Shown: positions 26,761 to 43,641, counted from the stretch's first letter. The stretch is DNA of 64,000 bases from Rhizodiscina lignyota (GCA_010015805.1 ML978129.1:1116001-1180000), one strand, 5' to 3'. The notes: generated by a model not told the origin, from the letters alone. Translations and numbers: made by a program.

Positions 26761-27608
26761 GGTTGCACTATTACAGTTGGAAACGGGTATAAAGGAGAGA
26801 AACTGAAGGAGAATGGAATGGAAGGCACGAAATAGAGGACTCGGAATGGTAATACAGATATCGTTGACGCAGGGCCGGGTATCATCCTACCCCACACGCT
26901 CACGTGCATCGTCTTATCCATCTGGAACCTTGAAACTTGTAAGCATTCATTTTTGAAACTTAGGGCCCTAAGAGTTTTCGTAACGTCGATTGAAATGCCA
27001 TGCTCATGTAGCATGGCGAGAAGTCGATGGATATTGAAACTTGGAAAGGAGGAATAGAATGACGCTTTTCCCGATTCGGATTGTGGCGTTTTGACCCCTT
27101 CCTTGCGAAATGCGAGCATTGCAAATTTGCGACGACTCGTCCTTAGCATCGCTGTCCAATGATGCATTCTATAGCCTCACTGGAAATAGTGCGCAGACTG
27201 CAGGATATCAACGACCAGGCAGTTGATCGACTTTGCGTTTGACTTTTGGCCCCCAAAGCTTAGCTGCAGGCGGCGATTTGTCCCGTGTCGCGGCTCAACT
27301 TCAGGACTCGAGCAGTCCAGTAAGAAACGGAGTTTGTACAGTTTGCTGCGACAGGAATGTGCATGAAAGCATCCATCATGCTATTTAAAAGAGCCGGCAG
27401 CCTAGTCAGAGCATTTGCTCAAGCTCTGACCGCAGCACGAATGGAGGCAGGCCACTCATTGCAAGCGATGTGGTTGAAGTGGCATCCACTCGCAGCCCAT
27501 TGATAAAGCAGCAGCCTTCCGACGGGAGTTGACCTTTCTTCGCGCTAGCTGACATTTACGAAGCAGGCGACTCAAGGGTATACTCCCTCCGAAAAAAATT
27601 TGAAAAAA

Positions 27609-29153
27609 ATGGGGAACGCAGTCTCCATTGCGAAGCATCCGTATGAGGAGATCGAGCTCGGCGACAAAAGTCTCCCCCAATTTGACAAGGCGTCTGGGAC
27701 GAGGACTGCTTGCATCATCGGACTCGTCTTCAGTGCTTGTGTTGGTATCGCATGTATCGTCGTAGGAGCTGTGGTCGCGAAAGGCAGCGACCGTCTCATA
27801 CATATTACTCCCGTCGCGCACGTGTTGATTCCGTTCCTCATCAACTTTGGCTTCGTCCTACCTGTCACAGAGAGCCTGAGTTACGTCCATATGGTCTGCC
27901 TACGATGGAATCTCCTGCATGAGAGCCGCCTGGAGTTCAACGCCAATCTTCGGCTTCTGACGTTTTCGAAGACGAACCCTGCAAACGGATTGCTGGCCAA
28001 TATACTGTTCTCCCTGGCAATCGCATTCTGTTATGCAGCCTCGTCAATGATATTCGTCCAAAATACGTACGAGTTCCATAAGACCGCCGGTAGTACCAAA
28101 TTCTACGAAGCGTCCAGCGTCACAAGCTTTACAAAAGTGCCGCCGATTGCCCTTGGCGTTGCCATATTGGTCCTATGTGTTTTGTCAACTTGGAGTTTAT
28201 TAACTTCGAAAATACTCACATGGAGCTCCAATCCCCTCAATACACTGGCAGCGGCAATATCAAAGGGTGCAATAATCCACAGAGACGGCCGTGCTATGAT
28301 GTCTGTACACCACCGGAAACAAACATCTGCACCAGTGCGTCCTTCCCCTCTTCAGCGGCCGCCGATTGCTGCCAACTCCATGGTTCCGAAGATTCTCTTT
28401 GGTACAATCGGGGTGCTATTTGCCTTGATTGCCTGGATGGGCATTATGATTGGCGTCGGGTATCACAATAAAAACGGGATGAGCTGGAATATCATTCCCA
28501 CGGCTACCATCAATGGAGCTAATTCGCTGGATAATCTTGCGAACCAGACCATGACAGTCTATCTCCAATGGTTTACCACAGAGAACCCTGGAATCGGCCC
28601 GAACATCATCCATGAGCCAATGATGGCTGGCGTCCTTGTTTTCACAGTAGCCATTCAATCCATCCTCACCATTGGCTTACACACTGCTGAGCTCCAAATC
28701 ACCCTACTTCGCGACGAAGATGTCTGGCGAGAAATGACGTCCAAAGGCGGTTCGGTTCGCTTGGACAAGTACAACTCTTACTTCCAGCCACTTCTTTCCT
28801 GGCAGAACGTTGTGCTACTGATATTCAAACCTGCAATACACTGGATGTTCGGATCAGCAATGGGCGTGGACTATGCAGCTGGTATTTTGATGAGAGTGCC
28901 GCACGTTACCTACCTCGCGATTCTCTGGGTCCTGTTCCTGTTGTTTATGCTTCAAGTCAGTTACACCAAGCCGAAGGGGCCTCTGCCTGCTAGCTACGGT
29001 CATTTGCAGACCATGGCGAATATCATTGACGAATGGGCCCCGAGGATGTACTGGGGCGACAAAGGAGAGTTGCCAGAATCAGGGGAACTGAGACATGCGG
29101 GAACAAAGAACACGCCGCTTCCAATGGTCGAAAGGGATTCTTTATATCAATAG
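27609..29153 (+). CDS. Multi-pass membrane protein of unknown function (about 8 TM)
   Basis: Uninterrupted 514-aa ORF from ATG 27609 with many hydrophobic segments; motifs LEFNANLRL, TWSSNPLNT, PKGPLPASYGHLQTMANIIDEW..YWGDKG..HAGT resemble a fungal uncharacterised family (from recall). Confidence 0.8.
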   Translation: MGNAVSIAKHPYEEIELGDKSLPQFDKASGTRTACIIGLVFSACVGIACIVVGAVVAKGSDRLIHITPVAHVLIPFLINFGFVLPVTESLSYVHMVCLRWNLLHESRLEFNANLRLLTFSKTNPANGLLANILFSLAIAFCYAASSMIFVQNTYEFHKTAGSTKFYEASSVTSFTKVPPIALGVAILVLCVLSTWSLLTSKILTWSSNPLNTLAAAISKGAIIHRDGRAMMSVHHRKQTSAPVRPSPLQRPPIAANSMVPKILFGTIGVLFALIAWMGIMIGVGYHNKNGMSWNIIPTATINGANSLDNLANQTMTVYLQWFTTENPGIGPNIIHEPMMAGVLVFTVAIQSILTIGLHTAELQITLLRDEDVWREMTSKGGSVRLDKYNSYFQPLLSWQNVVLLIFKPAIHWMFGSAMGVDYAAGILMRVPHVTYLAILWVLFLLFMLQVSYTKPKGPLPASYGHLQTMANIIDEWAPRMYWGDKGELPESGELRHAGTKNTPLPMVERDSLYQ

Positions 29154-29252
29154 AAACCTGTATGCTTTCCTCAAAATATTCCCAAACGCCTCGATAAGGA
29201 CCCGCAGCATCAGATGCCGCCTCTACCCCATCTCATGCTTCTTCTTTGAACT

Positions 29253-30325
29253 TCACCACAGCCCACCAATGCTGCCTCGACGCCTCGGTCTGTATCCACC
29301 ACCCGTAGGCATACCAGGCGGTCCGCCGAACGTCTCGCTCTCCGGTGCAGGCTCATTATGGGAAGGTGGTTGATTTCCATAACGTTCGACTTGCATGCCG
29401 AGACCTCTCCCTCGGGGATCTGGGTACCTCATCAAATCGGTACCGTGTCCAACACCACCGCGCCCCAATGGAGGAAATGGAGTCCTCATGACCATTTGAC
29501 CCATTCCTCCTCTACCGGACCCATTACCAACACGCTCCGATTGGGAAGAGGGAGCCCTCATAGCCATTTGGCCCATTCCTTCCATATCGGAGCCACCACC
29601 AACACGTTCGGGAGGGGGGAAGGGGTTTCTCATGACCATCTGGCCCATTCCTCCTGTGGCGCCATTTGCATGACTTTCTGGTGGTCGTTCCATGAGAGCT
29701 TGACCTGGAATGTAGGGTCTTCTGGGGTGGTTGATTCCGCCCAACCCCTCATGTTGGCCGTGAGCTGTTGGGGTCTGACCACTCATGGCTTGTATGCGGG
29801 CAATGTCCGATGCAGTTCCCCACAGCCGCTGATCATGAATTGCTCGGTCAACGTCTCTGATCATATGATGATCGCAATGAGCGACAATCCAGGCTGCTAG
29901 CTGTGGATCACGGCATTGAACTAATTCCACCGCTTCTCTTGGATCCGCCATATCAACATGGAACTGAGACCTGCTCACTCTCAGGTATATTCTCTGAGCG
30001 TAGAGATGAAGACCGTGTTTCGTGACGCAAACCTCGGCGGGATCGGCATGCCCGGAGCAGCCAAGTGGGTTTCCACAGTAGTGAGGTCTTGTTGGATCGT
30101 GCGAGGACATCTATGTGCGAGGTCAGTAAGTATTAGCTATACACAACATCATGGACTTGTACTGACAATGGCATAACAGGCATTGCAATAGCCTTGTGCA
30201 CGAAGATGTGCACACTCGGCTCTTCCGAATTCGTGTTCGTTTATTTGGAGTTCTCTGCCAGGCTGTGCTGGGTCGGCTATGACGTACATCGCCGGCTCCG
30301 CATAATGATTCCTATAACGATTCAT
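29253..30325 (-). CDS. Cys/His-domain protein A with Gly/Met-rich repeat tail, 2 exons
   Basis: Exons 30325-30167 and 30110-29253; phase-0 intron GTCAGT..CTGAC..TAG (56 nt); TATATAA about 80 bp upstream; three ~24-aa GMGQMxMRxP repeats. Confidence 0.75.
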
Positions 30326-30535
30326 GGCTGGTGTCGTCAAGCGGCAGGTCACGAACGTTGATAAGTTGATTGAGGAAGGAAGCTCTCTGTGAGAAGTGGT
30401 GGTTTATATACCCACAGAAAGGCGCTAGTATAGCGAACACCTCTGACACACAAAGCAGTGTTGCAGCTCAAGCAAACGATGTAGTTGACGGAAGTGTCGA
30501 AGTCACGGCTCAAGCTTTAAAGAGAATAGAAACAA

Positions 30536-30588
30536 AGGTACGACAGGTACGACAGGTACGACAGGTACGACAGGTACGACAGGTACGA
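30536..30588 (+). repeat. Perfect 9-bp tandem repeat (AGGTACGAC) x5.9
   Basis: Read directly from the sequence; intergenic between the two Cys/His-domain paralogs. Confidence 0.97.
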
Positions 30589-30910
30589 TGGCATGGCTTT
30601 TACACGTCCCATGACGACCTTTCTCTTATGCTCTTCACCGGCGCTTGCCTCCCTTCATCATTAGCGCATGATATCTGCCACTTTGAATAGCCGCCTGACA
30701 TATGGCAGGCGGCGCACTTTCGTGCACTACACACTTACGGTCATCAATGCGACAGACTGACGTATATTGGTTCATTAGCCTACTATCACAAGCAAGACAG
30801 CCTGGGAATGAGGCTACAAGATCTCTCAACGACAGGTCCAATGCTGCCGGACTCTGCATCCGTCGTGAAATGATATGCTGGAAACAGCCGCCCAATGACA
30901 ATCATGGCCA

Positions 30911-31549
30911 CTATCTGGCCCATAAGGGCCCATTCCCCGAGTTCTTTTCGTCATATCGGCCTCCGCGACCTCTGCAAGCGCCACGTTGATTCCTCTGCTG
31001 TCTACCCCTGTGAGGGCCGGCGGGAAATACATCCAGTAGTCCTCCACGCCCAGGCGGTGGAAAAGTCAGTCGACCCCCAAAGACATTCAAGCCGCGAGCC
31101 GCGTTTGCTACCATCACAGAATTGACCTGGTTATGCATCGCTGTATCCACATTCTGAGCGACGTACTCGGCTTCCTTCGGATCCGAAATCTCCATCACCC
31201 AAGAGAGACGCGTGTGTCCTACGATGAGGGACCTTTGCAAGGCTCTGTCGCATACGAGAGAAAGTCTTTTTGAGCTGATGCAAACTCCGTGCTGATGTAC
31301 GTGACCGATGCATCCCCAAGGATTCCCACAGTTGTAAAGTCCACCTCGGGCTTCTGGAACAGGCTACGCGGAGCTTAAGCTGTGTCGATCTTACACTGGC
31401 TGAAGAATCGGACTTACCAGTTGGAAGCAGAGATCGCAAACTCCATATTGCCCCAGATGAACACAGCGAAAGAGCTCTAGGATCTCTTCCCTGGGTACGT
31501 GGACCGTTCCACCCGTAGATCTGGAGATTATCGTGAACACGTCCGCCAT
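30911..31549 (-). CDS. Cys/His-domain protein B with Gly/Arg-rich tail, 2 exons; paralog of 29253-30325
   Basis: Exons 31549-31418 and 31363-30911; phase-0 intron GTAAGT..TAG (54 nt) at the same position as in paralog A; TATAAAT about 90 bp upstream. Confidence 0.75.
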
Positions 31550-32145
31550 CGTCTGCCGATGTGCGTCGATATCTCGCTTTTGAGCTAGGCGATGCTGAAA
31601 AGGTGGGAGCATGAGTTCTGCTCCAGTTCTCGACGCAATTTATATGTGAAAGCAAATGCCCGACAAGAGCGTTGATGCCCAGGCGCTTACTTGTGAGACC
31701 TTGAAAGGCTCACGCGATCTATCACTGTGGAGCGTTACGGAACAATAATCTTGAACTCCCCCTTCTCTCGCCGTTCCAGAACTCCGTGCGACAGATGCAG
31801 CAAGCCACAATCGCGAGCTCCGATCTGCAAAGCCATATACCGAATATACGGAAGTCGGCTCTTAACCTCTATGGGTCTTTATCTTTCAGGACATGCTCAG
31901 GAGAAATATGCCTGTTTTGTAGTAGCACTTTAAATCGCTCGCTTTGCAAAATATCAGTTGTGAGTTTTATATTCGTTGCCCTACTCCGTACTTAGTGTAT
32001 GAAAATCATATCTTGAGAATCACCCTTGTGCTTGATCCCCCGGAGTGAAGTGAGAGGAGCCATGACCCAAACGTCGTATCCAGATGCTGACCAGGGAAAC
32101 GCCCAGGTTTCCTAATAGGTCAGAGTATGCTTAAATCCTCGCGCA

Positions 32146-32958
32146 TTAGAACACCATCAGCCAACTCATTTCCTCAGGGTCTATTCCAGCAGCCATCAAT
32201 GCCTGCGCCATCCTGTTTCTTACCATGTCTTCCGTCATGGGCTGACCTTGGCACATCATCTCGACCCTCTGAATGATCTCTTCCGCCCTGGCAATGAGCT
32301 CCGCCCCTCTTGTCCGATTCTGTTCCGCGATCCTACGACGCTCACGCGCAGTTTCCAGTTCCTGTTCACGTGCCCCCATCCCCATGTCGCGATGACCATA
32401 TCCCGAGCCAGGCCGGCCGCCCAAGCCCATCGACGGCCTGCCGAATGGATCGTCCATGCCCATCGTGTTGCGTGGCATGCCGCCCATGTCCATACCACCC
32501 ATTGGACCACCACGTCCGCCGCGCCCCTGGCCCTGGCCTTGGCCTCGACCTCCCATTCCCCTTGGCCCGGCTCCCATACCTCCACGAGCCATCGGGTCTC
32601 CGTAAGGATCCATACCGGCCATGCCATGCTCAGCACGAGAATCCATGCCCGGCATGCCGGACATACCACGAGGATCGTGACCCATTGCCATGCCGCCGAA
32701 CGGGTCACCGCCCATCCCACCGCCCATCCCACCACCCATTCCACCACGGCCTCGTCCGGCCATCCCGCCCCGGCCTCGCATTCCGGGATGCCCCGTATTC
32801 GGAGGGCGGAAAGGACCACCTGGCTGTTGTCCGGACATTCGAGGATCGAAATCCTCTTCCATGTATGGGCCCTCTTGCTCCTCGGGTGAGACTATGCCCA
32901 CGCCGGGGATGTAGATCTCACCGGTACGTCGATTCCGCAGTGGGCGATCTCCGAACAT
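32146..32958 (-). CDS. Gly/Met/Arg/Pro low-complexity protein with RGG motifs and a C-terminal helical region
   Basis: 270-aa ATG-initiated ORF; GMRGRGGMAGRGRGGMGGGMGGG.., DPRGM units; charged helical tail REQELETARERRRIAEQ; TATAAG near 33180 on the minus strand. Confidence 0.75.
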   Translation of the reverse strand: MFGDRPLRNRRTGEIYIPGVGIVSPEEQEGPYMEEDFDPRMSGQQPGGPFRPPNTGHPGMRGRGGMAGRGRGGMGGGMGGGMGGDPFGGMAMGHDPRGMSGMPGMDSRAEHGMAGMDPYGDPMARGGMGAGPRGMGGRGQGQGQGRGGRGGPMGGMDMGGMPRNTMGMDDPFGRPSMGLGGRPGSGYGHRDMGMGAREQELETARERRRIAEQNRTRGAELIARAEEIIQRVEMMCQGQPMTEDMVRNRMAQALMAAGIDPEEMSWLMVF

Positions 32959-34099
32959 GCTGACTGATACGATGAATGATTTGGGTATCGAACTTGGTTG
33001 TTAAATGACTTGAGGCGGACCGTCAACCTTTAGACAGGAAACCAGAGACTTGCAGCTTGAGTGTGAATAGTGAAGCTTGTGTTTGAAAAGACGGAGTGTC
33101 CTGAGGGCGCAATTTTTGGTGATGTTGTAGTAGAAGAGGAGGAAAAGGCAGAGCGAGGAGAGCAAGGGCGAAGTACTTATAGAGGAGCCGACGTTCCTGG
33201 CGAGTGAATTCGGCAGGGTGTTGGAACCTGAAAGAGGCTAGCTTGCGTCAGGAGGTGTATGATGCTTATACGAAAGTTCTAGCGTCATGGGAGAAGCGCT
33301 GGTACGACACTCAACGCCACTCTTACGTGCTGTGAAGTATTCCGGAGTCGAGGCTATGTGCAACACTCGATACCCGTAGCGCTGGCTTCACTGTCTCGCG
33401 TATACACATGTGACTGTACTCATTAAGGACTTGAGGACCTACCGGTAATGATATACAGAGTTTTCTGGTTTGGCAATAATTACTCGGCGAGCCACTCTGA
33501 CGAGTCCTCGAGGCTCTCCTGCTCATTGCATATGACATATGGAAGACGAAGACGGAGACGGAGATCTAGTGTAATGATTTTGCTACACCTGGGACTTGAC
33601 CGATGCATCAATTGGAATAGGGGTTCCGTATCAGGAAATATAGTTCGTCGTACTGTCGCGAATTTGACAAGAGCGTCGAGTTCCAACTGATATGTGAGGC
33701 ATCTGTGTGGAATGGACCTAAAGGTAAGCAAACATAAAGAGCTTGAAGGTGGGTATTTCACAGGCCATTGACTTCTTCTATATCATATATGCATACTAGC
33801 CCTTTTATTCAATGAGAGTGCCACTCACTGATATTCTCTGATCTCTGGAAAGATGGAGATGAAGTTTAGGCTAGAGTATCTAACTGTATTTGTACTAGCG
33901 CCAACCAACGCCATGCTTCCCGGCGGCAGCAGGCTGGTTCAACTCCCCCTGATCTCATTGTTTGTTAAATCTGTAGCAAATTTCACTCCGTTCATTGTTA
34001 CTAGACCCAAATTGATCCATATGTAAAAGAAAGCTTCTCGAGAAGTCAATTTTGACCTTTTTTCTACTACTAACTCCATTCATGTTTGTCAGAACACTG

Positions 34100-34560
34100 T
34101 CGTCACCCATCACACCAACCTCCACGGCCAAACTTTCCAAATCCCTTGCTGCCACAACCTCTCGTTGTACCTGATGATCCGCTGCAGGGAGCTCGGTCAA
34201 AATTCGTACTGCGGTGGAGGATCGAAGTCATTCTCAAAACCTGTGCCTTACACGGACGACCGTTCGCTCGGCGGAGTCTGTTTCGTGGTTTGTGAATGGA
34301 TAGTTCCCTTAAACACGGCCTCGTTATTAACCCCCCTTCCAGCTGCGCCTGGCTGAGGACCTTGAGGACTTATATGCCGACTATACCCCCGCGATGTGGA
34401 GCAGCCATACCACCTCGACTTGGACCGCCCCTACCACCGCGACCTCTGACAGCAGGGTAACCAGGATCCCGCACGGCCATCGTTCCCATACCGTTAGTCA
34501 GTGAGTTGAGGGCATTTTGTGACGCCGTGCATCGGACCGCAAACCTCGCTGGTTTTGAAA
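34100..34560 (-). pseudogene. Decayed remnant of the Gly/Met/Arg-tail gene family
   Basis: Frame through 34489-34370 reads NGMGTMAVRDPGYPAVRGRGGRGGPSRGGMAAPHRGG.., matching GMGQMAMRAP of gene A and GRGGRGGP of the 32-kb gene; stops and shifts follow. Boundaries approximate. Confidence 0.45.
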
Positions 34561-34658: not shown

Positions 34659-35141
34659 GCAAACTTTTATGGACATAAGACTATTGTCCGAATTCTCCTG
34701 GGAGACATGCGTATCGACGTTAACTGTGCAACTAAATATGCCCCAACACCATTACAGGCCGCCATGTCCGCAGGACATCACCACATTGTCAGACTCCTTC
34801 TTGAGCATCCATCAATCGACGTAAATTATATCGGAACAGATCACATAGGAGCAACGCCCTTGGCCCTTGCCACAATATGCAGGAACACTGACCTTGTACG
34901 CACTCTCATTAGCCAGGATGACGTTCAAATCAATCAGATAAGCGGCTATGAAGAATCGACCGCACTATTTTTTGCTGTCGCAGATGGCCACACAAGCATC
35001 GTTGAAGAACTATTGAGACATCCAAAGATTGAGGTCAATATCAAGGATGGCATAGGACGTACACCCTTGACGATGGCAGCGTCGTGCGGCACTCCTGAGA
35101 TTGTCAACCTTCTACTGCAGCATGACGATGTGACGATTTGA
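34659..35141 (+). pseudogene. Ankyrin-repeat gene fragment (about 4.5 repeats), truncated at both ends
   Basis: TPLQAA..GHHHIVRLLL, TPLALA, TALFFA..GHTSIVEELL, GRTPLTMAA. The ankyrin pattern (ANFYGHKTIVRILL) continues upstream of the ATG to an in-frame TAA, and the ORF stops abruptly at LLLQHDDVTI*. Confidence 0.7.
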
Positions 35142-36919: not shown

Positions 36920-38994
36920 ATGAAGGAAACGGTATTGTCTGGGAGAAAGAAGCGAACACTCAATTACGACAAGTGCACGTATTGCAGAAAGGCTAAGAAA
37001 AGGGTTAGTGTATCGAAATGTTCTCTAACTCGGTTCCAGCCCGCGCTTCGCAGCCCTGTCTTTCAGTTCGTTGTGCTAAATATCATTCAATTCAATATAT
37101 AACCGATTGCGTACAGAAGGCTAGCACCGTTCCTCTGTGCGCCATGTCCATTAAACAAGAGTTACCGAGCTCAAGTTCTTTCTGTCACTTATTATCTGCG
37201 TTGAAAAGGAAACACTTTGATTTCTAAGGCTTTCCTTGAATCCCTACTCACTTGCTGGATTCCATACACTTGTCTTAGCTCTGCTGTCAGAACTGTTACT
37301 TGTGTGGATTGATGGCTATCAAGTACTGACACAGAGCAGTGCGAGCCAGTCACTCGTAAATGGCCAGGAGAGAAATGCAATCGCTGCCAAATCGAGGGGC
37401 TTCCATGTTCCGAAAATGAAGCACGAAAAGCTGGCGGGCGAACTTCAGCGCTATCCCCACCTGTTCCGTGAGTACATTAGAACTACACCATAACCATTGT
37501 AGACCTATTATCCCAGTTGTCCACTAATCCCATCGTAGCGACGATATCGAAACGATCCAGCATGCAACCATCGACTCAGATGCATGGTTCGATGGGCCAA
37601 TGCGGCAATTGCAAGATTTGTAAGCCATACTATAATCCCGTATCCTTCCAGTACCTAACCTTTCCGGTAGGCTTCTCAAGTCTGAAAGATCTGATTGGGA
37701 GCGACCTGGGCAGGTGAAACGACTGCTTACCTGCTTTGCTGCCCTGCACGACCTTAATGGACGAAGTTTAATCCACATATCCGCAATACACGGAGATCCG
37801 GAACTGTTCAAGCTTCTTGTTACGGGTACGAATGTCGATATCAATGCCAGAACCCCCTTTGGAGAGACTGCTTTGGGTCTGGCTGCACTCTATGGCCACC
37901 ACGCACTGGTCCAACTACTGGCTGATCGAGCAGACACCGATATGAACCTGGGCATTACAACTGGCGGGACAAATACAGCACCACTGACTATTGCAGTGAA
38001 TAGGCGCTACGAAGGAGTTGTAACAGTTTTCGCAAAGGATTTGCGGGTTAACGCTAATATCCGCGATACTTCCGGGAAAACACCGTTATGCCAGGCAATT
38101 CACCAAGGAGATGAGAACATCGCGATAATCCTTCTTCATCATGAAATGATCTTGGCCGATGATATCAGCGTAGACGAGCGGGCCCATGAACTACCTCTCC
38201 GACTCGCGGCGAGGCGAGGACTCCATCATGTTGTAAATGCCCTTATAGCTCGTCACGATGTGGATGTCAACAAAAAGAGTGGCTTGGAGAAGTCGAGTGC
38301 CCTCCACGCTGCTGCAACAGTCGGACAAAACCGAATAATTGAGATGCTATTGAAGCATCCCGACATTGATGTCAATTCTGTTGATATGCGCGACCAAACG
38401 CCATTGGCAGCTGCAATCAAGAATGGAGACTTAGATACCATCCAGATCCTACTCGATCAGCGCAAATGTAAAGCGACTGTGACAATGGAGAGCATGGGCA
38501 TGCATGTATTGAACAGGGAGGTGCGCCGAGTTCGCTGCGAGGATCACACGAGGATTTTTGTGAGCACCAATATCCAATTCATTAAGGATTTCTGGATCGG
38601 AGCATGTCTGAATAAACTGGAGAGGATCGAAGTGGCATTCTATTACTATTTACAGCCCACGGTGAGATCAGAATATTCTCATGGGCGGGTTTCTCAGTCG
38701 GTTAGCTTGGTCTTGAACTGGCATACAGACCTAATGAGCATTCTGCTGCAGCATCTCACTACCAGGGAACTAAACATGAAAGACAGCGACTCAACGACTC
38801 TGCTTATGAGAGCAGCATCATGCGGGAATGAGAATGTAGTCAGGATGCTGATGGAGCGAATCGATCTCGACGTGAACGTGGAAGATGCAACGGGAAACAC
38901 GGCCCTTCACATCGCGGAGCATAGTGGACGCGAGGCAATAGTCAAGCTGCTTAAGGAGAATAGCCATGTAGCATCAAGAGTATTCGGTTATTGA
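36920..38994 (+). CDS. Zn(II)2Cys6-like domain fused to ankyrin repeats, 4 exons
   Basis: Exons 36920-37003, 37340-37467, 37539-37619, 37671-38994, all GT-AG with consistent phases. They give CTYCRKAKKR/CEPVTRKWPGEKCNRCQIEGLPC followed by about 9 ankyrin repeats. Confidence 0.8.
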
Positions 38995-41085: not shown

Positions 41086-43641
41086 ATGGCTCCTGCCGCG
41101 GAGCATCATCACCATCGCAGCACAACCAAAGCTGCCCAAAAGCCGTTCAAAGCGAGACATGCCACCAAGAGCGCTCTCAAGGAGCGATCAAAAGGTACAG
41201 TTCAATGCATAGTACAGGATTAGCATTAGTGGCTCACCATAAATATAGGAAAGATAGACGGCCTTGAGAAAGGCATACGCCGAACGCCTCACCAACACGT
41301 CATGTCGAAACTAAATCGCCGCAACCAAGCGAAGCAGAAGCGATTGACGCACAATCTGGAGCATGCAAAAGCAACAAGCGTATTTTCAGGTCGAGATGCC
41401 GCGCCAAGGATGGTTGCAGTTATTCCACTTTGCGATGACATCGATATACAAGATGCGGTGCGGAGTTTTAATAAAAGCGTGGAAATTCCGGAAGATGTAC
41501 CCGCAGATGGCTTTGTGCGCATCAACGTGGACAGGTTCAAGCAAAAGATAACATTCCTCCAAATTCGAAGAGATATGCTTGCGGCACTAGATGCATGCAG
41601 AGTCGCGGACTTTGTGGTCTTCGTGATGTCAGCCGAGCAAGAGGTGGATTCTTATGGGGAGCTGCTATTGAAGAGTATCGAGAGCCAGGGCGTATCCAGT
41701 GCCTTTGCAACAGTACAGGTGGGTGAATCGTAGCCATTAGTATATGCATTGACTAACTTGTTGTAGCATCTGGACAAAATTGAACCGGCCAAGAAACGAC
41801 CACAAGTCGCAGCATCACTCAAGTCCTTCATCACTCATTTCTTCCCAACGATTGAAAAAGTTACCTCGCTAGACTCTCGGCAGGAGAGTCTTAACCTTGT
41901 TCGATCCCTCTGCACATCTACACCAAAAGGTATAAGATGGCGCGAAGACAGGAGTTGGATGATGGTTGAAGACGTACAATGGCCCTCTGCAAAACAGCCG
42001 GATACTGGTGACGCTGCTAAGGGCGAGGTCATATTGACGGGAGTAGTGCGAGGAAAAAGTCTCAAAGCAGACAGACTTGTGCAAGTCGGCGACTGGGGAG
42101 ATTACCAAATTGAGAAGATCACAGCGGCGCCACTTGAGACAAAAAAGAAGGGCAAAGACGACAACATGATGGTGGATGAGCAGTCAAACGATATCCTAGA
42201 ACAGCCGTCGGCTGATCAGGATGATATGGTGGAGCTGGCGCCTGAAGAGGTGGTCATGCAGGACACAGCAGACATGGCTGTATCCGTCGCGACGACGTCT
42301 CGAAAGGGTGTGCTACTCGACGACCATCACTACTTCTCCGATGAGGAGGAATACGAAGCGCCAAAACCGAAACGGCTGCCAAGAGGAACTTCGGAATACC
42401 AGTCTGCTTGGTATCTAGACGATGTCTCAGACTCAGGCTCCGACCTAACAGATGTCGAAGATGCAGACGAGGACGTCAGTATGGGAGGCGGTCCTGTCGA
42501 GCCGGCAGATGGCATTGAAGGTCTTGCTGGACCAGAAGCAATGACTGAAGGAGGGCCATCGGAGTATCCTCAGTCTGAGATGTTCCTCGATCCATCGCCT
42601 GATGATGAGGCTGAAGAACTTGCAGCCTACCGTGCGTCACGAAAAAATGAGGCAAAAGAAGATCTTGAGTTCCCTGATGAAATTGAGCTTCATCCTCAAG
42701 TACTTGCGCGTGATCGTCTCGCGCGATACCGCGGGCTTAAGAGCGCCAAAACCTCGCCTTGGGATACAGCCGAGGATGCGCCTTTCGAGCCAGCAGAATG
42801 GCGGAGACTATTGACAATATCGGATTATGGGCTTGCAAAGAGGAAAGTGCTGAGAGAGTCAACCGATGGAGGAGTTAAACCCGGCACACGAGTACACGTC
42901 CATCTGCGTGATGTTCCGATCTCGTTGCAAACATCACACCAGTCCGGCAATGTGCTCGCAATGTTCCAGCTCCTCCGACACGAGCACAAACGTGTCGCCG
43001 CAAACTTCAGCATCACTCTCTCCTCTGACCTCGAAGCTCCTATCAAGTCCAAGGAGCAGCTCATCATGCAGTGCGGTCCGCGCAGGTTCGTCATCAATCC
43101 GCTCTTCAGCCAGGCAGGCAACACTCCGAACAACGTGCACAAGTTCGAGCGATGGCTGCATCCAGGGCGCTCAGCGATCGCATCTGCTATTACCCCTCTG
43201 ACATGGGGCGCTGTTCCTGTCCTTTACTTCAAGCAGACCTCCGATTCTCTTGAATTTGTCGGAACTGGAACGTCTCTGCCCCCCTCGCCTGCTCGCGTCA
43301 TCGCAAAGCGCATAATCTTGACAGGCCATCCATACAAGATTCACAAACGCCTCGTAACGATACGCTACATGTTCTTCAATTCCGAGGATGTGCATTACTT
43401 CAAGAGCTTGCCGCTGTGGACGAAAAGGGGTAGGAGCGGGTTTGTCAGGGAGAGTCTGGGCACGCATGGGTACTTCAAGGCTGTGTTTGATGGCAAGATC
43501 AACCCCATGGATGCCATTGGCGTTAGTTTGTGGAAGAGATGTTGGCCGAGGAGTGCGAGGCTATGGAGTGGGGTTGTAGACACTGAATCTCATGAGGCAG
43601 ACGGGGATCACGGCTTTGCCGGAATGATCACAGGCGTCTAG
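41086..43641 (+). CDS. TSR1: Pre-40S ribosome biogenesis factor Tsr1, 3 exons
   Basis: HHHRSTTKAAQKPFKARHATK, RRNQAKQKR, IRWREDRSWM, TGVVRGKSLKADRLVQ, FPDEIEL, RYRGLKS, RYMFFNSEDV, ESLGTHGYFK. Confidence 0.96.

Follow-up and report, generated by a model that had tools for sequence, protein, structure and literature searches.

A tandem pair of orphan genes in Rhizodiscina lignyota shares a constrained eight-ligand Cys/His module with a putative role in metal binding

Two adjacent genes of Rhizodiscina lignyota encode proteins in which six Cys and two His residues recur at the same spacing, and they raise the question of whether this pattern marks a metal-binding module outside the described families. 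The genes, hereafter A and B, are arranged head to tail on the minus strand at 29253..31612 of a 64,000-nucleotide stretch (GCA_010015805.1 ML978129.1:1116001-1180000; hereafter the window, in whose coordinates all positions are given), and each of them contains one intron. R. lignyota is a saprobic wood fungus belonging to the Dothideomycetes, order Aulographales. A previous reading of the window, made from the sequence alone (hereafter the sequence-only reading), had proposed that the two genes are tandem paralogs defining a "splice-hidden" domain with eight Cys/His ligands. The present analysis shows that A and B are two real, anciently duplicated, lineage-restricted coding genes with a constrained eight-ligand Cys/His module. 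We tentatively favor structural zinc binding as its function.

Read across the splice junction, both proteins follow the pattern C-x-H-L-x3-G-x-C-x2-C-x14-C-G-N-P-x-G-C-x-G-H-x6-C without an insertion or deletion. This module extends over approximately 45 residues and has six invariant Cys and two invariant His residues at fixed spacing, where invariant means identical in 2 of 2 sequences. In gene A, its first half (C38-x-H40-L-x3-G-x-C47-x2-C50) is encoded by exon 1 (30176..30214) and its second half (C65-G-N-P-x-G-C71-x-G-H74-x6-C81) by exon 2 (30027..30077). The first half in gene B, C-V-H-L-x3-G-x-C-x2-C, is likewise in exon 1 (31427..31465), and the second half, CGNPWGCIGH-x6-C, is in exon 2 (31280..31330), which also encodes a DPKEA sequence and a short RG/RGG-rich tail. 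BLASTP of the gene A protein (P0001) against the gene B protein (P0002) gave 48.1 bits and an E value of 3e-11, with 27 of 92 residues identical (29%). In a MAFFT alignment of the domain parts (A1), 33 of 149 columns were invariant, including all eight Cys/His positions of the motif and its L, G, GNP, G, and G residues, and no gap fell within the motif. The downstream D-P-x-E-A was invariant as well (DPREA in A and DPKEA in B), and the 14-residue linker within the module kept its length while its sequence diverged. All six Cys residues of the module are invariant, whereas those outside it (residues 119 and 132 in A; 103 and 195 in B) are not conserved. Tandem paralogy, identical spacing across the junction, and the common DPxEA, all of which the sequence-only reading had claimed, were thus reproduced by alignment.

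An ungapped block of 60 codons was used to compare the genes at the nucleotide level. Twenty residues are identical in this block, half of them (10/20) encoded by different codons, and the nucleotide identity is 50%, with 52%, 57%, and 42% at codon positions 1, 2, and 3, respectively. Because codons differ at conserved residues and the third position is the least conserved, this pattern indicates an old duplication under purifying selection. Genes A and B are true, old paralogs, and the motif is under purifying selection. A six-frame regular-expression scan of the whole 64 kb found C.HL.{3}G.C..C twice and CGNP.GC twice, only at genes A and B. One match to the looser expression C.H.{6}C..C, at 42926..42964, is out of frame inside a 624-aa open reading frame (ORF). 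The ORF directly upstream of gene B (gene C; 32146..33000, minus strand) was considered as a third paralog and was found to have no Cys/His motif and a best BLASTP E value of 0.33 against P0001. It is 284 aa from stop to stop, with a likely start at MFGDRPL..., and no Pfam family matched it at E ≤ 10. Its middle is a long G/M/R-rich region of low complexity (GGMGG and RGRGG units), similar in composition to the gene A tail, and its C-terminal part is charged and appears helical by eye.

The gene structures agree with this relationship. Gene A consists of exon 1 (30167..30325; 53 codons, with the ATG at 30325), a 56-nt phase 0 intron (30111..30166) with a GTCAGT donor, a branch-like ACTGAC, and a TAG acceptor, and exon 2 (29253..30110), whose 285 codons (30110..29256) are followed by a stop codon (29255..29253). 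Gene B consists of exon 1 (31418..31612), a 54-nt phase 0 intron (31364..31417) with a GTAAGT donor and a TAG acceptor, and exon 2 (30911..31363), with 150 codons (31363..30914) and a stop codon (30913..30911). Use of a CAG 10 nt past the end of the gene B intron would result in a frameshift into a 51-aa dead end. In both genes, the intron is located after the third residue behind C-x2-C, in agreement with the prediction of a phase 0 intron at the same position. When the exons were joined by a script from the window coordinates, the products were identical, letter for letter, to P0001 (338 aa) and P0002 (215 aa), each of which is a "hypothetical protein" of R. lignyota in NCBI and UniRef. According to PMC7082219, annotation of the genomes was done with the Joint Genome Institute (JGI) Annotation pipeline. 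Because the spliced products equal public proteins, both junctions were already annotated and not hidden, and the term "splice-hidden" was overstated. The accompanying statement that the ORF track shows none of this structure holds for raw ORFs and fails for the deposited models, which use exactly these junctions. The proposed start of gene B at 31549 also has to be moved, since the public model begins 21 codons upstream, at 31612.

Only one sequencing run containing the stretch was found (X1), and it is not on record as RNA. Over 27400..34500, X1 is represented by eight contig pieces that follow the order of the genome colinearly and cross both introns without joints. Because its contigs are colinear and have no joints, X1 looks like DNA and is therefore silent on splicing or expression.

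Outside the module, the two proteins share a general architecture. The approximately 70 to 80 residues that follow the module, which in gene A include DPREA, are predicted as helices in an AlphaFold2 model of low confidence. Beyond them, gene A has a tail of 173 residues containing 38 G, 24 P, 18 R, and 14 M, with several RG/GRG motifs, and gene B has a G/R/P-rich tail of 50 residues with RGG and RG motifs. These Gly/Arg/Pro(/Met)-rich tails are disordered. Part of the gene A tail is encoded by three tandem 72-nt (24-codon) units at 29441..29656 (minus strand), which are 69 to 71% identical and follow GMGQM...R...P. On the opposite strand, a 216-aa open frame (29250..29900, plus strand) lies over this repeat-rich tail, and the codon score does not separate the two strands there; biased composition probably accounts for the antisense frame.

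Does the module belong to a described family? Membership of a Pfam-A zinc-finger or Cys-rich family (RING, PHD, B-box, LIM, AN1, MYND, CHY, SCA7, NF-X1, and others) was defined as a hidden Markov model (HMM) match at or above the gathering score. The sequence-only reading had placed the module outside described families and had named a confident match as one of three results that would refute it; such a match was looked for in Pfam, NCBIfam, and PDB sequences, and none was found. The other two, introns spliced differently and homologs lacking the Cys/His positions, did not emerge from the sequence evidence either. Pfam searches with hmmscan at E ≤ 10 gave no family for any of the four exon translations and none for full-length P0002. 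For full-length P0001, they gave only a noise-level row for Zn_ribbon_bTOP1 (PF21372; residues 36-74, E = 0.59, 10.4 bits against a cut-off of 27). This topoisomerase I zinc ribbon spans the Cys/His module of P0001 and is absent for P0002. NCBIfam, which covers curated bacterial and archaeal families, gave none for either protein at E ≤ 10, and PDB sequences gave no match at E ≤ 10 to the profiles A1 and A2, both of which combine A and B. P0001 alone matched five sequences of GH45 "Endoglucanase V-like" enzymes (PDB 3x2l and relatives; E = 0.025-0.031), and in 3x2l, chain residues 30-89 are weakly similar to P0001 residues 21-83 (63 residues, phmmer E = 0.025). Because the A1 and A2 profiles lost this match, the likeness to GH45 was treated as chance. 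Membership of GH45 is recognized by similarity across the double-psi beta-barrel together with secretion. GH45 enzymes are secreted, whereas P0001 and P0002 have no signal peptide by our reading, and P0002 has no GH45 match.

The module resembles small zinc modules, such as ribbons, treble-clef fingers, and the RING/PHD cross-brace, in having eight Cys/His residues within approximately 45 residues, a C-x2-C knuckle, Gly/Pro-rich turns beside the ligands, a variable linker of fixed length, and an intracellular-type protein around it. To our knowledge, no RING, PHD, B-box, LIM, AN1, MYND, or CCCH pattern has the spacing C-x-H-x6-C-x2-C-x14-C-x5-C-x2-H-x6-C of the module. Its C-x5-C-x2-H end presumably recalls SCA7-type fingers, and its C-x-H ... 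C-x2-H pair what we take to be Rieske ligands, in both cases without an HMM match. Rieske proteins are recognized by C-x-H and C-x2-H ligand boxes on a beta-sandwich fold, and PF00355 was not matched at E ≤ 10 despite the ligand-pair pattern at C38/H40 and C71/H74. In the feature search of the ESM Atlas language model, the nearest neighbors of the gene B domain were bacterial clusters with Zn_Tnp_IS91 (172-177 of 256 features), at a score of 0.88-0.89 that, by the tool's own figures, approximately one in ten shuffled proteins reaches by chance; ten concordant neighbors are reached by a third of shuffled proteins. For the gene A domain, the top score was 0.78 (an unnamed viral cluster), which is noise. 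Zn_Tnp_IS91 (PF14319) is the N-terminal zinc-binding domain of IS91 bacterial transposases and normally stands in front of a Y2 transposase domain. Neither A nor B has an HMM row for it at E ≤ 10 or a transposase catalytic part, and we assume that its knuckle-linker-knuckle layout is loosely similar to that of the module. The language model may thus sense a zinc-binding-like module in the gene B domain, which is a weak lead. Structure neighbors in the ESM Atlas had template modeling (TM) scores by query of at most 0.45, obtained from low-confidence models, and were disregarded.

We also asked how far relatives of the pair extend. An hmmsearch of the A1 profile against 1,835,955,588 representative proteins at E ≤ 0.001 returned P0001 (2.8e-73) and P0002 (2.2e-62) only. 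In word-index protein searches of 5.8 billion clusters, each query recovered its own record and nothing else (1 of 13 and 1 of 71 candidates), and the same was true of a search with the motif profile on longer proteins at E ≤ 10 (2 of 56 candidates); the word index is blind at the distance between A and B, for the P0001 query missed P0002 even though the latter was within the length range. When the A1 pattern was combined with tblastn, viral contigs yielded 36 pattern matches and prokaryote genomes 27, none of which was confirmed. A 41-bit degenerate DNA pattern for CGNPxGCxGH-x6-C hit three loci in metagenome contigs, and all three were taken as chance because each has an in-frame stop before the last Cys and no upstream C-x-H...C-x2-C. 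These loci (L001:1402-1539, L002:1381-1539, and L003:1381-1539) read ...CGNPxGCxGHGPR followed by a stop and are alike upstream too; they are related to one another and not to the fungal module, and the pattern probably hit a conserved gene in a frame that is not coding. The locus tags of A and B are not mentioned in the literature searched, where their prefix occurs in one paper, on gliotoxin; judged by title or abstract, none of the papers listed on orphan or taxonomically restricted fungal zinc fingers was relevant.

Aligned with each other, A and B score only 48 bits, and by our estimate a third member at equal distance would be borderline even for a profile, and a single sequence would not recover its own paralog at database scale. 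"Orphan" here means that no relative at least as close as A is to B was found at this borderline sensitivity in the protein, metagenome, viral, and prokaryote collections searched, which is not proof that relatives are absent. Sampling around the species is also sparse: according to PMC7082219 and the taxonomy, no other member of its family has been sequenced, and its order holds only Aulographaceae and Rhizodiscinaceae.

What might the module do? Judging from composition, from the chemistry of the ligands, and from the absence of a signal peptide, we favor, tentatively and at somewhat less than even chances, structural zinc binding in an intracellular protein whose RG-rich tail contacts nucleic acid. 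The eight Cys/His ligands would hold one or two structural zinc ions and thereby fold a small module, which together with the predicted helical region would act as a binding surface, and the RG-rich tail would contact nucleic acid, probably RNA. As the sequence-only reading had stated, neither N-terminus has a hydrophobic core by our reading of the protein sequences, and the absence of a hydrophobic signal-like stretch favors metal ligation over disulfides. A bolder version, which we regard as unlikely, is that the module is an undescribed two-metal fold with an eight-ligand C-H-C-C / C-C-H-C arrangement. It would be a private nucleic-acid- or protein-binding zinc domain that either originated in the isolated Rhizodiscinaceae or changed there until it was no longer recognizable, and that selection has maintained in two paralogs coupling the module to RG-rich tails, with no relative among 1.84 billion representatives.

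Several points weigh against zinc binding by a folded module. The conservation is read from one pair of sequences, a place among zinc-binding domains is proposed from the ligand pattern, and the step from an RG-rich tail to RNA is argued from composition alone. That metal is bound, which metal it is, its stoichiometry, the cellular location, and the partner are all matters that we infer. At E ≤ 10, no zinc-finger HMM matched apart from the noise-level row described above. With the two-row alignment, which is a poor test of structure prediction, AlphaFold2 gave a mean predicted local distance difference test (pLDDT) of 35.7 and a predicted TM score (pTM) of 0.24 for the 138-residue domain, and 45.3 and 0.27, respectively, for the 67-residue module; the ESM Atlas models of the gene A and B domains had pLDDT values of 0.35 and 0.33. 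Zinc modules that fold robustly are often modeled with higher confidence. Codon usage is also equivocal. The annotated frame scored higher than the other two sense frames in the domain parts of gene A (0.030 versus -0.231 and -0.447) and gene B (0.110 versus -0.306 and -0.190), and the annotated frame is thereby weakly supported. An antisense frame scored equally well (0.069 and 0.096), no sense frame was preferred in the tails of A and B, and the score of a control ORF taken from the window was higher (0.201).

The low confidence of the structure predictors would also be expected if A and B were fast-evolving lineage-specific genes with little stable structure, in which a known zinc ribbon or treble-clef finger, for example of the transposase type, has diverged beyond recognition and persists as the module, which would then represent no new fold. 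The neighbors of the gene B domain in the language model, all of which bear Zn_Tnp_IS91 at 0.88-0.89, point in this direction, and C-x2-C-x14-C-x5-C-x2-H presumably corresponds to the knuckle-linker-knuckle layout of a zinc ribbon. However, the gene A domain has no such neighbors, its best being the viral cluster at 0.78, PF14319 was not matched by hmmscan at E ≤ 10, and concordant neighbors are as frequent among shuffled proteins as noted above, so that we consider this explanation possible but unlikely. It is improbable that the six Cys residues instead form three disulfides, making the module a knot in a protein that is exported non-classically or resides in an oxidizing compartment. An even number of Cys at fixed spacing is also typical of small disulfide-rich fungal proteins, and the motif is covered by the weak match to secreted GH45 chains that gene A alone shows (E = 0.025-0.031, five distinct sequences); yet this match is gone with the combined A and B profile (0 at E ≤ 10), neither N-terminus is signal-peptide-like, intracellular proteins are where long, disordered, RG-rich tails typically occur, and two invariant His residues would be left without an explanation.

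The weak discrimination by codon usage and the 216-aa antisense ORF overlapping the gene A tail might also suggest that one or both gene models are annotation artefacts, untranscribed or spliced otherwise. Against this, two diverged copies keep long open frames of 338 and 215 codons, share intron position and phase with GT..AG ends, keep the eight-ligand spacing across the junction, and are least conserved at the third codon position, a whole pattern that is unexpected of non-coding DNA and makes an artefact very improbable. The chance appears slimmer still that the module binds an iron-sulfur cluster, for example 2Fe-2S at C38/H40 and C71/H74, with zinc or a disulfide at the other four Cys residues. 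The C-x-H ... C-x2-H pairs, with 30 residues between them, fit what we take to be a Rieske-type pattern, and the first box, C-x-H-L, is presumably like that of bc1-type Rieske proteins. Short two-residue ligand patterns easily arise by chance, however, and neither protein matched Rieske, CDGSH, or any other iron-sulfur family in Pfam at E ≤ 10, nor did any PDB sequence match the A and B profile.

The surroundings of the pair were surveyed with Pfam, which matched 7 of 12 neighboring ORFs: a 3-beta-HSD/epimerase-like ORF, a fragment of a flavin mononucleotide (FMN)-dependent dehydrogenase, a fungal-specific transcription factor domain, a methyltransferase, two ankyrin-repeat ORFs, and a BING4CT/WD40 ORF. 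Nothing in this survey suggests a functional cluster around A and B. The ankyrin-repeat ORFs (34659..35141 and 37636..38994, both on the plus strand; Ank_2, E = 9e-28 and 1.4e-44, respectively) are a few kb from the pair. A convergent 534-aa frame at 27549..29153 (plus strand), ending 100 nt before the gene A stop, has several long hydrophobic stretches and only a noise row in Pfam (DUF1600, E = 1.7); its product looks like a multi-pass membrane protein. The spacer from the gene B stop to the gene A ATG (30326..30910) is 585 bp long and contains a perfect (AGGTACGAC) × 5.9 microsatellite at 30536..30588, where the short-read contigs of X1 break. Approximately 30 nt just upstream of the gene A ATG (30367..30398) are common to the ends of two other X1 contigs (records 3 and 5), which have loose ends on both sides; because it is shared in this way, the stretch seems to have further copies in the genome.

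Fungal genomes commonly encode Cys-rich hypothetical proteins that are lineage-restricted, and both members of this pair were already public as hypothetical proteins; what is new is a putative Cys/His metal module of undescribed spacing. Its practical weight is limited, as it has two members in one saprobic species, without a phenotype, partner, or structural model, and no question of long standing is opened by it. Zinc binding through a new ligand topology, if confirmed, would make the module a small addition to the catalogue of metal-binding folds. In that case, the module would also exemplify a structured domain found in just one sparsely sampled fungal lineage, and as such would bear on the origin of new domains and on the "dark" domain diversity in orphan genes.

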